Assembly (NCBI GenBank): GCA_903839715.1
Contig: CAIMDH010000138.1
Coordinates: 1 to 25,082 of the forward strand
Direction of reading: 5' to 3'
Length of the DNA stretch: 25,082 nucleotides
Source: an uncultured bacterium
Lineage (GTDB): Bacteria; Patescibacteriota; Minisyncoccia; Phycocordibacterales; UBA918
Positions within the stretch are counted from its first letter, which is position 1. Every line of letters begins with the position of its first letter. The position numbers were made by a program, and so were the translations under genes. The notes below the pieces were generated by a model. The model had not been told where the DNA came from and did not search any database. It saw only the letters and a list, made by a program, of their open reading frames with translations. Shown piece by piece: positions 15,426 to 22,212 of this stretch.

Positions 15426-15491
15426 TTGAACACAATTACACTTCAAAATTGTACAGCTGTTGTACTATCGCCTTGTAAGCACAGTACATTT

Positions 15492-15507
15492 GCACTGTTC
15501 CTTACAG
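15492..15507 (-). repeat. 16-bp exact duplicate of the 23S 3' end / helix-1 extension
   Basis: GCACTGTTCCTTACAG at 15492-15507 and 15647-15662. Confidence 0.9.
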
Positions 15508-15884
15508 TTGAGTGACTTGAGAGTCATGTAAATAAAAGTTTTACTTTTATTTACATGACCGAATAAACGAGAACTGTATAAAGGTACTCAAATATTCTCA
15601 CTCAACTATAAGAAACTATTTAGCGCTCTCTGCATTGCAGAGATATGCACTGTTCCTTACAGGAAATACGCCCTATTAGTACACCTTGACTCCATACATT
15701 GCTGTACTTCCATCTAGTGCCTATCAACCTGATCATCTCTCAGGGGACTTAATGATTCCTAATCTTGGAGTTGGCTTCCCGCTTAGATGCTTTCAGCGGT
15801 TATCCATTCCGAACATAGCTACTCGGCGGTGCCACTGGCGTGACAGCCGATAGACCAGAGGTTCGTTCATTCCGGTCCTCTCGT

Positions 15885-16665
15885 CGTTTATTCCCCTCTT
15901 TCAAGGAGCACAGACTATATCTTCACCCGTCTACATGGATAGTAGTGAGGGTGATGGCATCTTACACATAGAAGCAGTCATTTTCTAAGAAATGATTCCT
16001 CTACCTATGCGTCCGCGCGTCTTTCAGCGCAAGTCGTTACGGGGTCAAACCCAATCGAAGTAGCAAAGTTTCTTTACTCAAAGTAGCGTGGCTTTTGTAG
16101 TTACAGCCTCTAATTAAAAAGACAAAATCTACTAAGCTTCGCAACTCATACTCACTCAGCTTGCTAATTGTTTTCGAACTCAAGATTGTACAAGCTTGCA
16201 ATAAAGCATCCGCTTGAACTGTTTTGAATCTGATAAAAGGTCGCAACTGAGTCAATACTTTTTGTACTGAAACAAAACCATTAATTCTTAGCTCGGTCAT
16301 CCCATCATTACGATTGGATAAGTATCCGATTTCTAAGATTTCACGCATCCACTTAAGTGGTTCTGCGTGGCAAGTATCTTGATAGAGACATATAGTTGCC
16401 ATAAATCTGACGCCACGACTAGTGTCGTTTCGTAGTTTTATCTGCAACATTATGCTTCCATCTCCATCAAGGAAACCTGCAATGTATGCTAAATCTGTTT
16501 TGGATCGACTTCCCACGGTATTATCATATCAACATTCCGGTCCTCAAGCGAGTTTAATGCACACTGGACCGTGGCGCATTAAATTCTAAAACCGAAAGTG
16601 ACGTAGACTTCACCGTTATAAGCCATGTTGTCATCAGAGATCTCTCTCTGAAGTAGCAAAAATTT
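15885..16665 (-). mobile_element. Group I intron (IA-like, 781 nt) inserted after U2656 (E. coli numbering) in the sarcin-ricin loop
   Basis: Removal restores CCTAGT|ACGAGAGGACC. The 5' exon ends in U paired to G in P1 (UAGU/GCUA) and the intron ends in G. P3 GAUGACA/UGCCAUC, P7 ACGACUU/UAGUCU with J8/7 GAAGAUA, P7.1/P7.2 stems and a GAAA-capped P9 are present. Confidence 0.92.
16037..16516 (-). CDS. Single-motif LAGLIDADG homing endonuclease (I-CreI-like) in the intron P6 region
   Basis: YIAGFLDGDGSI motif, 159 aa, GTG start; lies between the Q (AAUACCGUGG) and R/P7 elements, with the stop abutting P7. Confidence 0.93.
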   Translation of the reverse strand: MGSRSKTDLAYIAGFLDGDGSIMLQIKLRNDTSRGVRFMATICLYQDTCHAEPLKWMREILEIGYLSNRNDGMTELRINGFVSVQKVLTQLRPFIRFKTVQADALLQACTILSSKTISKLSEYELRSLVDFVFLIRGCNYKSHATLSKETLLLRLGLTP

Positions 16666-17388
16666 ACTAGGAACAACTCTCCTCAAGAATCGACGCCTGC
16701 AGTAGATAGGAGACCAACCTGTCTCACGACGGTCTAAACCCAGCTCACGTGACTTTTTAATTGGCGAACAGCCAAACCCTTGGGACCTGCTCCAGCCCCA
16801 GGATAAGTCGAGCCGACATCGAGGTGCCGAACCGTGCCGTCGCTATGGACGCTTGGGCACGACTAGCCTGTTATCCCCAGGGTTACTTTTATCGGGTAAT
16901 CTCCGGCCGCATCTAACGCGTACCATCGGTTCACTATGCTCCGCTTTCGCGTCTGTTCGGCATCTACGCCTTACAGTCAAGCTGGTTTATGCCATTACAC
17001 TATCGGTACGGTTTCCATTCGCACCTAACCAACCTTGAGACCCCTCCGTTACTTTTTGGGAGGGTAGCGCCCCACTAAAACTGCCTGCCACGCACTGTCT
17101 CTGATAGATTTTTTCTAACAGGTTAGAGACTACCAAATTAAAGGGTGCTATTTCACTGACGACTCCATGGTACCCGAAAGCCCACTTCAAAGTCTCACAC
17201 CTATACTACGCATTAATTCAATAGCCCCAATACGAAGCTACAGTAAAGCACCTGGGGTCTTTTCGTCTATCTGCAGGTACGCGGCATCTTTACCGCGATT
17301 GTATTTTCACCGAGCTGGTCCTCGAGACAGTTTCCCACTCGTTACGCCATTCGTGCACGTCGGAACTTACCCGACAAGGAAATACGCT

Positions 17389-17618
17389 CTATTTTTCCTT
17401 CTTAACGACAAGCCTTACTTGTCTGTGCACCAATAGGACTCTATCTTCATCTTCACCAAGAAATAAATCAGGGTGGTCAGATGTCTAGCATTTGGTCTCT
17501 TGTTGGCTAGATTTGGATTACTCTCTATTTCTAGAGGTAAGGTAACTATGGCTAGGCTGTTTAAACCTATAACCGTTCTAATCCGTAGAGCGTACTTCCC
17601 TTACGGGAAATGCGCTCT
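17389..17618 (-). mobile_element. ORF-less, compact or degenerate group I intron (230 nt) at L1931
   Basis: Removal restores CTAAGGT|AGCG-TAT-TTCCTTGTCGGG. The 5' exon ends in U and the intron ends in G. Contains S-like GAAGATAGAGTCC, R-like GAGACC, CTAGC/GCTAG P3 and GACAAG/CTTGTC P9. The boundary could shift 2 nt because of an AG repeat. Confidence 0.8.
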
Positions 17619-19381
17619 ACCTTAGAACGATTATAGTTATCGCTGACATTTACTGGGGCTTATATAGTCCAGCAATACAATCCGAAGATCATATCACCCC
17701 CCATATTTAACCTTCCAGCATAGGTCAGGCGTCACCCTCTATACATCCACTTACGTGTTCGCAGAGAGCTGTGTTTTTGTTAAACAGTCGGCAGGAAATC
17801 TTTCGCTGCGGCCTCATACATTGCTGTAGAGGCAGGCCTTATCCCTAAGTTACGGCCGCTTTTTTGCCGAGTTCCTTGAGGACCAATCACTCGTTCGCCT
17901 TAGTCTTCTCGACTCTACCACCTGTGTCGGTTTGCGGTACGGAACCGTTATGTTTAACCCAAACGAAGTTTTTCTCGGAAGCGTGCTCTTTATATTTGCT
18001 TGGCCGTAGCCGCGCATTCAGACTCATCTCGGAATATTGCCACGCGGATTTGCCAACGTGACTTCCTCAAAGCTCCAGCACCAATCCAATAAGATGCTAT
18101 AAGTACAACGCTCCGTCCCTCCATAGGAACATAACAGTGTGCAGGAATATTAACCTGCTATCCATCGGGTCCCCCATTCGGGATTCCCTTAGGACCGACT
18201 AACCCTTCGCTGATCAACATAGCAAAGGAAACCTTGGTATTTCGGCGGACGGGGGTCTCACCCGTCTTGCGGTTACTTGTGCCGGCATTCTCACTCCTCC
18301 TCGCTCCACCGCGGCTCTCGCCTTGGATTCATCGCAGAGAAGGACGCTCTCCTACCACTCCCATGATAAATCATGGAAATCCGCAGTTTCGGTAATATAC
18401 TTGAGCCCCGATCATCTTCGGCGCAAGGACTCTCGATCAGTGAGCTGTTACGCTTTCTTTAAAGGATGGCTGCTTCTAAGCCAACCTCCTGATTGTTTGA
18501 GAATCCTCACCTCCTCAAGTTGCACTGAGTATATATTTAGGGACCTTAACTGGCGATCTGGGCTGTTTCCCTTTCGACCAATGGAGCTTCTCCCCCATAG
18601 TCTAACTGCTGCGCTATAATCTACTGGTATTCGGAGTTTGATAGGAGCAACGAGATTTCTCCCTGTTTGCTCCTTCCAGTGCTCTACCCCCAGAGGGACC
18701 ACGCAACGCCAACCCAAAAGCTGTTTCGGAGAGAACCAGCTATTACGTAATTCGATAAGCTTTTCACTCCTTACCACAAGTCATCCCATAGTTTTGTACG
18801 GCTAACGGGTTCGGGCCTCCACGACCTATTACAGTCGCTTCACCCTGCTCATGGTAAGCTCATCACGCTTCGGGTCGTACCCCTACCCTATATTCGCGCT
18901 ATTCACGCTCGCTTTCACTGTGCCTCCGTGGGTCTACCACTTAGACAAAGGATAAAGGTACACTCGCCGGCTCATTCTTCAATAGGCACGCCGTCACCCC
19001 AATAAATTGAGGCTCCGACTCCTTGTAGGTGTATGGTTTCAGATCTATTTCACTCCCCTCTCCGGGGTTCTTTTCACCTTTCCCTCACGGTACTTGTTCA
19101 CTATCGGTCTCCAAGAATATTTAGCCTTACCAGTTAGTACTGGCAGATTCATTCGGGCTATTCGTGTCCCGAACTACTCAGGAACTCAAACAAAAGAGAC
19201 ATATGCATTTCGAATACAGGACTATTACCTACTGGGGTCGAGCTTTCCAACTCATTTTTCTATACATACATTTTATAACTCTTTGCAACTAAATGCCGTC
19301 TGAGCCCTACAACCCCATTAATGTAAACATTAATGGTTTGGGCTGTTCCCGTTTCGCTCGCCGCTACTAAGGGAATCGCAA

Positions 19382-19479
19382 GAACCTTCTTCCTGAACAT
19401 AATGGCGCAGAGCACCAACGTCCAGGAACTAGTCCCTGAACATGATGCAATGCATCTGTTCAGAAAGAAAGTTCCGTTA
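19382..19479 (-). other. About 98-nt expansion or IVS in 23S helix 12 (E. coli about 224-231)
   Basis: Between AGAAAGCAA and TTGCGATTCCC: an 18-bp stem GAACTTTCTTTCTGAACA / TGTTCAGGAAGAAGGTTC closing three internal hairpins. Confidence 0.85.
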
Positions 19480-21552: not shown

Positions 21553-21588
21553 TCGGTCATGCAAAAGTAAACTTTCGCACGACTCTCA
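21553..21588 (-). repeat. Fold-back element core, homologous to 15518-15562
   Basis: TGAGAGTC(G/A)TG-[AT-rich hairpin with AAAG-TTT(T)A-CTTTT apex]-CATGACCGA at both loci. Confidence 0.8.
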
Positions 21589-21589
21589 C

Positions 21590-21613
21590 TTACTTGAAAG
21601 TTACCTTTGCGCC
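21590..21613 (-). repeat. Duplicate of the last 8 codons of rplL (22/24 identical, stop retained)
   Basis: Minus strand GGCGCAAAGGTAACTTTCAAGTAA versus rplL GGCGCAAAGGTAACTTTGAAATAA (21828-21805). Confidence 0.9.
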
Positions 21614-21766
21614 GTCACGAATCACTAAGCAAATTCACTCGTTTCACTCACGAATTGGCCAAGTGTTCGCTACCCCGCCTCAGCGCTTTCGAAGAAATAG
21701 TCTCCCAGACTATTTCTTCTGATACGCGCTTCCGGCTCTGGTGCAAAGGTAATTAAAATATAGGTA

Positions 21767-21802
21767 TTAAAAAACTACTCCCGGAAGGGAGTAGTTTTTT
21801 AA
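21767..21802 (-). terminator. rplJ-rplL terminator
   Basis: 16-bp inverted repeat TTAAAAAACTACTCCC / GGGAGTAGTTTTTTAA directly after the rplL stop. Confidence 0.85.
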
Positions 21803-21804
21803 CC

Positions 21805-22212
21805 TTATTTCAAAGTTACCTTTGCGCCAGCTGCCTCAAGCTTTACCTTAAGAGCCTCAGCATCTTCCTTCTTCATACCTTCCTTTACTACTGATGGAGC
21901 AGCGTCTACAAGGTCCTTGGCTTCCTTGAGTCCAAGACCAAGTACCTCCTTGACTACCTTGATAACTGCAATCTTCTGTGCGCCACCATCGGTGAGCTCA
22001 ACAGTAAATTCTGACTGCTCTTCAGCTGCTGGTCCTGCTGCTGGTCCTGCTACGGCTACCGCTTGTGCAGAAACACCAAAGTGCTTCTCGAGAACCTTCA
22101 CAAGAGCGTGGAGCTCAAGTACAGTCATCTTTTCTACTTGATCAATGAGAGCCTTAAACTCTTTTGGAATCTCTACTGTTTCGGTTGCAGCTACGGTTGT
22201 TTCTTCTGACAT
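21805..22212 (-). CDS. rplL: 50S ribosomal protein L7/L12
   Basis: [33 protein letters not shown] and AGAKVTLK. Confidence 0.98.

Follow-up and report, generated by a model that had tools for sequence, protein, structure and literature searches.

The described systems closest to the sequences considered here are the integrative elements that insert at the 3' ends of transfer RNA (tRNA) and transfer-messenger RNA (tmRNA) genes, and the insertion sequences of the IS110/IS1111 group, in which a seekRNA with a guide-hairpin-guide layout matches both strands of the target (PMC11187229); IS110 elements also target repetitive extragenic palindromic (REP) sequences, and an IS110 transposase can mobilise a small-RNA module that has no open reading frame (ORF) of its own (PMC12288879). 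In this article, I will discuss 25,082 nucleotides (nt) of DNA from an uncultured bacterium of the Patescibacteriota (the window, meaning the whole stretch that was analysed: contig CAIMDH010000138.1 of assembly GCA_903839715.1), in which three cassettes, at the 23S rRNA, 5S rRNA and rplL genes, each hold a displaced copy of part of the neighbouring gene together with a folded core. I give a probability of roughly 0.55 to the reading that these cassettes are mobile elements of ~60-215 bp which lack an ORF, fold, carry interchangeable cores and are guided to their targets by base pairing, all of this taken jointly, and I will call them echo elements. On this reading they form one superfamily, with family A at rplL, family B at 5S, and family C at 23S and again, nested, at rplL. 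What carries this reading is one anatomy repeated at unrelated genes, orthologous sites that stand empty in relatives, and a fold that is kept on one strand. A search of the literature found no description of these elements.

Copied gene ends around folded cores

Within an assembly of 876 kb (147 contigs, 43% G+C) the window makes up contig C138, and the genes concerned all lie on its minus strand, 23S and 5S as placed by Rfam, and rplL (L7/L12) and rplJ with confirmation by Pfam. The original prediction, made from the letters of the window, was that a non-autonomous element or a template-switching process had copied local gene ends in both orientations beside a fold-back element. The analysis supports the first of these, non-autonomous elements that set such copies on either side of a folded core; every repeat that was listed was found at its coordinates, the spacings given between direct copies (139, 201 and 190 nt) are correct, and the gene-end repeats far exceed chance expectation, 23 positions of the window having exact 17-mers that recur within 300 nt and 50 shuffles giving 0.0. 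The absence of a mobilising enzyme from the window was likewise borne out by a Pfam scan, in which no transposase or recombinase is encoded and the sole enzyme of this kind is a LAGLIDADG ORF inside an insert of the 23S gene. Rfam 15 gave no relevant match at E <= 1 in the window region and none at E <= 0.01 in 14 other loci of the genome.

The rplL cassette shows the layout most fully. Its features are listed from the gene outward, s denoting the copied segment of the gene end and s' its antisense copy; genomes, contigs and loci carry codes beginning with G, C and L.

21804-21828, minus strand: last codons and stop of rplL, s, gene-proximal copy (direct repeat)
21767-21802, either strand: intrinsic terminator working in both directions, at the tip of the s/s' palindrome (terminator scan of both strands)
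21738-21773, minus strand: antisense copy s' of the rplL end (36-nt inverted arms)
21683-21737, minus strand: family A junction and hairpin Pb (fold; covariation by eye)
21613-21682, minus strand: family A core, helix P1 and hairpin Pa (match to covariance model R1, E = 1e-12; nhmmer; covariation statistics)
21589-21613, minus strand: distal copy of the rplL end, reading GAKVTFK-stop (direct repeat; orthologues in G018, G010 and G020)
21527-21588, plus strand: short family C element, nested, with the distal copy on one side and the old terminator on the other (12-nt flanking direct repeat)
21442-21503, minus strand: older unit made of a terminator (21466-21503) and an inverted rplL-end copy (21442-21456) (inverted repeats; likewise in G020)

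The direct repeat (21589-21613 and 21804-21828) is 25 nt long and 92% identical, the copy ending in ..GAKVTFK-stop where the gene ends in GAKVTLK-stop. The segment s' forms a hairpin of ~45 pairs in the minimum-free-energy fold and covaries with the gene end in G018 and G020, the transcript of the gene strand folds with z = -8.8, and a G-N-C / G-N'-C covariation at the junction and Pb, judged by eye, runs across loci. The insertion is common to at least three congeners, in which the antisense copy and the gene end have changed in concert. The nested family C insert of 63 bp, flanked by a 12-nt repeat (21515-21526 and 21590-21601), is missing from the orthologous rplL locus of G020. The core that the original prediction took for the element of this cassette is this nested insert; the element between the repeats is the different and much commoner family A core at 21613-21682. 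A promoter reading of a TATAAT-like stretch in the core was dropped; the stretch is one arm of hairpin Pa, and a scan at rplL gave no promoter.

At 23S the element is of family C:

15643-15662, minus strand: segment s of the 23S 3' end, gene-proximal copy (direct repeat)
15508-15642, minus strand: family C element inserted after 23S (no congener match reaches into it)
15598-15616, minus strand: antisense segment s' of the element (inverted pair with 15497-15515)
15518-15562, minus strand: family C core hairpin, the 'shared core' of the original prediction (17-nt perfect arms)
15488-15507, minus strand: 23S end, distal copy, with the ancestral 3' flank after it (direct repeat)

Here the direct repeat (15488-15507 and 15643-15662) covers 20 nt at 95% identity with a 17-nt exact core, and the 135-nt insert between its copies (15508-15642), which comprises a small hairpin (15627-15643), the core and the antisense segment, was found in this genome alone when 42 congeners were compared: the 23S end is conserved in all 42, their matches stop there, and the sequence past the distal copy matches the spacer of relatives, including a flank motif, ..GCTGTACA.TTTTGA.., that is common to them. 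The antisense segment pairs with the last 8 nt of the element and the first 11 nt of the distal copy, and both mismatches of this 19-nt inverted pair (15497-15515 and 15598-15616) are C-A on the plus strand and G-U on the minus, or 23S, strand, which supports the earlier claim that such stems act on the transcribed strand; the RNA of that strand folds with z = -11.7. Positions 15474-15487 hold an additional, degenerate inverted copy of the 23S end. Also, the end segment at 15643-15662 pairs with the 5' flank of 23S at 19685-19706, a pairing that the flank of the distal copy lengthens to 25 nt. As for the core said to be shared between the 23S and rplL cassettes, it does occur at both places (15518-15562 and 21553-21588), the two copies being oppositely oriented relative to the neighbouring gene, but it is a minor family with just these 2 copies in the 876-kb assembly.

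The spacer after 23S is a recurrent insertion site, and the spacers of congeners (L203, L204 and L212) carry different hairpin-rich inserts of their own, those of G018 and G051 being ~150 nt long and that of G048 a family B element in the opposite orientation. The 23S gene itself holds two further inserts (15892-16680 and 17423-17573), weakly similar to group I introns at scores below the Rfam threshold, one of them encoding the LAGLIDADG ORF (16037-16516); because of these inserts the Rfam match to 23S begins at 16679, though the true 3' end lies near 15643.

The 5S cassette, of family B, stands on the other side of its gene:

14931-14975, minus strand: 5' flank and first ~23 nt of 5S, the copy belonging to the real gene (direct repeat)
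15005-15170, minus strand: family B core inserted upstream of 5S (start and end motifs recur in nested family A copies)
15169-15213, minus strand: upstream decoy copy of the 5S start (direct repeat)

The two copies (14931-14975 and 15169-15213) share 45 nt at 96% identity, 37 nt of them exact. The original prediction was right about the 37-nt direct copy and mistaken in calling it a gene end, for the 5S gene runs from 14953 to 14846 on the minus strand and the repeat covers its 5' flank and beginning, so that the displaced copy sits upstream, unlike those of other targets, which sit downstream. The start and end motifs of family B are found again nested within family A copies on contigs C37 and C67, and a related core lies behind tRNA-Leu and tRNA-Ser and in the 23S spacer of a congener (L212).

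Several neighbouring observations can be set down here. Between 23S and 5S there is a tRNA-like gene (15272-15349, minus strand) in which ARAGORN detects no normal anticodon, and relatives carry ordinary-looking tRNA genes at the matching place of their 23S-5S spacers; no 16S gene is linked to this 23S-5S unit. Between the start of 23S and the region downstream of rplL, positions 20282-21389 hold overlapping ORFs of 214 amino acids on both strands and another of 110 amino acids, none with a Pfam match. Elsewhere in the assembly, the end of contig C13 (near 12173-12330) repeats tRNA-Arg perfectly in inverted orientation on the far side of a terminator, which may be a fold-back artefact of assembly, and contigs C81 and C93 both carry tRNA-Trp with tRNA-Ile(gat), which hints at a mixture of strains or contamination of the bin.

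Dispersal, empty sites and a strand-specific fold

A BLAST search of the repeat spacers against the genome places 21613-21696 in a dispersed family, family A, and covariance model R1 finds 17 copies of its 69-nt core in this genome, 1-31 copies in each of 56 of the 61 genomes of the genus, and the core in 5 of 150 other genomes drawn across the phylum, a patchy distribution that fits a mobile element. A 16-mer of the core matches more than 119 loci in a species-representative collection, mostly in genomes named Patescibacteria and including Saccharibacteria, Paceibacteria, Nomura-, Yonath-, Kaiser- and Peribacteria; among viral contigs, 11 hold this 16-mer and none scores with the core hidden Markov model (HMM) at E < 1e-3. 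The Patescibacteria among the named carriers of the core, a 75% nucleotide match to a Paceibacterota contig and the size of the genome all agree with placing it in that group. Of the 69 HMM hits in these loci, 50 come <=400 nt after the 3' end of a gene for tRNA or tmRNA, convergent with it in the orientation first chosen. The targets in this genome are tRNA-Val, tRNA-Glu, tRNA-Lys, tRNA-Ala (three elements in tandem), tRNA-His, tmRNA and the 3' ends of rpsI, ftsZ and rplL, the ends of ftsZ and rpsI being occupied in distant lineages too, and other types of core with the same layout stand behind tRNA-Gly, tRNA-Ala, tRNA-Arg and tRNA-Cys.

Read on the gene strand, the order of parts is constant: s, a hairpin or terminator, the antisense s', the Pb junction, the core and a second s. 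Gene-end direct repeats of 12-46 nt are present at every copy; in this genome they lie 164-197 nt from the start of the core, with the inverted copies at +97 to +137, and at tRNA and tmRNA targets the repeat typically spans T-loop position 56/57 to position 74. The antisense copy answers to the last 12-35 nt of the target and is often split in two by a small hairpin, one part (s'b) opposing the acceptor strand and trailer and the other (s'a) the T-stem and T-loop, and the loop of the hairpin between them recurs across loci and phyla while its flanks vary with the target. Beyond these parts come the variable hairpin Pb, closed by a covarying 3-bp helix, and the core itself, a long helix P1 with hairpin Pa, which the second s abuts directly, followed by the older trailer and terminator. 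The target-specific s' segments are read as parts of the element because they are interleaved with its conserved pieces, and from this arrangement they look like built-in guide segments; the same interleaving, with the small hairpin and its conserved loop, speaks against the suggestion that they are by-products of template switching. Two other accounts of the anatomy were rejected. Insertion of the core into the T-loop of a tRNA copy fails on s', which is a true reverse complement of the 3' strand and not the 5' strand of the tRNA, and a target duplication that took in the whole palindrome fits two young copies but not those with a perfect 19-nt repeat and unrelated terminators.

Empty alleles, which the original prediction had proposed as a check on mobility, were found at the tmRNA locus of congeners: in G018, G022 and G050 the tmRNA is followed by CCA and a shared trailer, and the site is occupied in G049 and G001 (from the sequence), in G010 (from a core match downstream) and in the present genome. 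In G049 the distal copy runs into exactly the CCA and trailer of the empty sites, and a new terminator comes after the gene-proximal copy. Furthermore, cores that are 86-94% identical stand at five targets in this genome (tRNA-Val, tRNA-Lys, tRNA-Glu, tmRNA and one further tRNA-like end), and those of rplL, rpsI and ftsZ, at 63-80% identity to the rest, look older by this measure. Tandem and nested copies are common, copies of family A containing family B or IS110 and having family C as a neighbour, and the distal copy has decayed in an old element (L175).

The fold of the core is a property of one strand. Over 48 loci the 125-nt core region has a mean folding energy of -45.8 kcal/mol on the gene strand and -37.6 on the complement, the gene strand folding better in 46 of them, with 153 G-U pairs against 49. 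The structure of P1 and Pa was tested on alignment A1, 44 cores from diverse genomes, in which 90.6% of cells pair (78.7% in shuffles, and <=44% in controls with slid partners), 11 of 22 pairs change on both sides, and compensatory cells number 125 against 39.9; one G-U pair, an A-C mismatch if read on the opposite strand, persists in 43 of the 44 sequences. Because of this strand-biased fold, its covariation and its G-U pairs, a single-stranded form of the gene's strand is under selection, and whether that form would be RNA or single-stranded DNA (ssDNA), the data fit both alike.

A proposed guide within the element, and the alternatives

How such an element might move can be put as follows. 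The single-stranded element, RNA or ssDNA of the gene strand, would use s' as a guide, base-pairing to the coding strand where a highly transcribed gene ends and tolerating G-U or G-T pairs; this pairing would set both junctions at the edges of the paired segment, an enzyme acting in trans, or else the repair or replication of the host, would make the joins, and the gene would keep or regain an intact end while a second copy of that end remains. In favour of the guide are the guide-hairpin-guide layout within the element, the lineage-specific 23S copy whose imperfect, G-U-containing s' spans the junction of element and target, the bias to highly expressed targets and the strand-specific fold. 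The further step, that these are a new class of mobile element without a protein, made of a two-part guide and a replacement gene end and inserted by an unrecognised and possibly host activity, I regard as possible, with the odds against it.

Several observations weigh against base-pair-guided mobility. No transposase family searched tracks with the element, and no enzyme was identified. At rplL, s' covaries with the gene-proximal copy, which could reflect selection on a long terminator hairpin and not on a guide. The direct repeat of some young copies takes in the terminator as well (46 nt at L072, and at least 65 nt at tRNA-Leu on C76), which looks like real target duplication or gene conversion and not like sequence borne by the element. 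The tmRNA of G049 and the 23S mismatch disagree on which copy of s came with the element, and the mechanism gives no account of how s and s' would be rewritten for a new target.

Unlikely, if the best placed of the alternatives, are miniature elements of the attP type, in which a tyrosine recombinase (Xer-like, or from a phage or plasmid) recombines a carried gene end with the chromosomal end, restoring the gene and leaving attL/attR direct repeats, as tRNA-integrating islands or integrative mobile elements exploiting Xer (IMEX) do. The targeting of tRNA and tmRNA 3' ends, a junction in the T-loop, repeats of 15-46 nt, tandem arrays and the distal displacement of the ancestral end are all what this would give, and the genome has one tyrosine (Xer-like) recombinase, on another contig. 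However, no integrase lies in or next to any element, near-identical cores occupy at least five 'att' sites in one genome and rplL, rpsI, ftsZ, 23S and 5S besides, and neither a split antisense copy nor a strand-specific fold with G-U pairs is expected of att sites that are double-stranded.

I consider it similarly unlikely that the cassettes are RNA structures selected by the host (extended terminators, 3' processing or stability structures, or antisense regulators) and spread by local duplication or template switching. The very stable folds of the gene strand at rplL and 23S, the covariation of s' with the rplL gene end across species and the occupied ftsZ and rpsI ends of distant lineages would suit such a history, as would a tRNA-Phe without an element whose terminator stem already reaches 9 nt into the end of the tRNA; it sits badly with the patchy distribution in the phylum, the empty orthologous sites and the strain-specific 23S insert, and with near-identical cores at unrelated targets, tandem and nested copies and the decay of the distal copy in L175.

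The layout shared with seekRNA and the ORF-less module ssr9 of ISPpu9 (both in the papers cited at the outset) invite the thought that echo elements derive from IS110/IS1111 by loss of the ORF, the core with s' and s being a bridge or seek RNA served by a DEDD recombinase in trans, and an IS110-family DEDD transposase gene does lie directly behind tRNA-Tyr (638-721) on contig C59 (G000:C59:31-462, minus strand). This I hold improbable. A DEDD transposase occurs in just 7 of the 61 genomes of the genus, in 3 of 301 genomes of the class and at 0 of 91 element loci, and the guides here are 12-35 nt long, not 4-8 nt. In G052, two IS110 copies that are 99.5% identical (L161 and L166) sit inside family A cores at the same position, so that IS110 uses the core as a landing site, as it uses REPs; IS110/IS1111 was accordingly rejected as parent or mobiliser. 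In G017 an IS110 lies between two complete echo elements (L162), and other IS110 members of the class (L168 and L170) have no link to tRNAs.

The original prediction had also suggested an HUH transposase, and Y1/HUH genes of the IS200-like kind are indeed present, with 7 hits in this 0.88-Mb genome (C102:6304-6669, C84:1575-1928, C109:3551-3898, C4:6901-7128, and the ends of C5 and C4), but across the genus their presence does not follow that of the element. Three of them are diverged paralogues of 223-235 amino acids, each flanked by short repeats of its own that are not dispersed in the genome and are unrelated to echo elements (an inverted pair on C84 and on C109, a direct pair on C4). Of the 61 genomes, 33 have Y1 and 56 the family A core; more than 20 carry the core without a Y1 hit, among them G010 with its 17 family A copies; a test of correlation between Y1 and core has low power, because only 5 genomes of the genus are without the core. 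With private flanking repeats and no co-occurrence, Y1/HUH is not supported as the mobiliser. Within this genome, TnpB has no match and rve has 3 hits.

Less probable again is a retro-element, in which RNA of the core would be reverse-transcribed, the reverse transcriptase would switch onto the 3' ends of abundant RNAs, and the cDNA would recombine at the gene. Mauriceville retroplasmid variants are reported to have captured tRNAs in a comparable way, the targets here are the most abundant RNAs, and the variable length of the repeats, their ends at tRNA position 74 and in the T-loop, and the strand-specific fold all agree with it. Yet a search for reverse transcriptase, made in this genome only, returned one weak fragment below threshold, simple orders of template switching fail, on reasoning, to give the order s'-core-s, no captured, non-encoded CCA was seen, and the 5S case copies a 5' flank that lies outside the mature RNA.

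That the cassettes are artefacts of assembly or binning, which the fragmentation into 147 contigs and the suspicious palindromic tRNA copy at the end of C13 might suggest and which the original prediction had named as its possible undoing, hardly deserves consideration, given that the architecture recurs in dozens of independently assembled genomes, some of 1-2 contigs, and that the repeats are internal to a contig of 25 kb.

Comparison with described systems

If guided mobility is correct, fewer than 220 nt without a gene of their own would choose a site by pairing and repair the gene that is hit; this would point to a joining activity in Patescibacteria that is as yet unknown, and possibly to a principle for programmable insertion. 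Were echo elements moreover a new class, they would be a form of insertion programmed by base pairing and naturally retargetable, separate from that of CRISPR transposons, bridge RNAs, group II introns and integrases. On a more conservative view, the elements account for a good deal of the non-coding DNA that follows the genes for tRNA, rRNA and ribosomal proteins in genomes as tiny as these, supply the most expressed genes with decoy ends and very strong hairpins on the 3' side, and serve as landing pads for IS110. For annotation, they yield tRNA and rRNA fragments and false att sites.

Set against the known classes, classical miniature inverted-repeat transposable elements (MITEs) differ in that echo elements have no conserved terminal inverted repeats and a repeat length that varies over 12-65 nt, and diversity-generating retroelements in that there is here a weak reverse-transcriptase fragment only, with copies of 20-45 nt that show few differences. 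IS200/IS605 elements use a 4-5-nt site without duplication, which is not the pattern of echo elements. REP/REPIN-RAYT systems and the palindrome-associated transposable elements (PATEs) of IS200/IS605 are likewise small, folded, extragenic repeats placed just after genes, strand-specific and landing pads for IS110; unlike echo elements, REPs hold no copy or complement of the neighbouring gene end and no direct repeats. The bridge RNA or seekRNA of IS110/IS1111 is a structured RNA whose segments match both strands of the target, with guides flanking a stem-loop, and the s' and s of echo elements may be comparable; its apparent 'duplications' belong to the element, as the copies here probably do, and ORF-less RNA modules (ssr9 of ISPpu9) can spread. 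The differences are that the DEDD recombinase is rare here and targets the family A core instead of carrying it, that the IS110 guides of 4-8 nt are replaced by s' and s segments of 12-35 nt, both covering one and the same target segment, and that there is no similarity of sequence or in Rfam.

The integrative elements of tRNA and tmRNA genes (islands, prophages and IMEX such as the CTX phage) likewise insert at 3' ends, leave the gene intact with the displaced end as a direct repeat of 15-46 nt, and form tandem arrays, and elements of the CTX type use a folded single strand that mimics the duplex of the target, a further likeness. With the tyrosine-integrase class echo elements thus share direct repeats of gene 3' ends, and they show neither its encoded or adjacent integrase nor its single att site. 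Unlike these integrative elements, echo elements are gene-less units of 60-215 bp with no associated integrase, one family of cores serves many targets, protein and rRNA genes included, and the element carries an antisense copy of its target that is split by a conserved hairpin.

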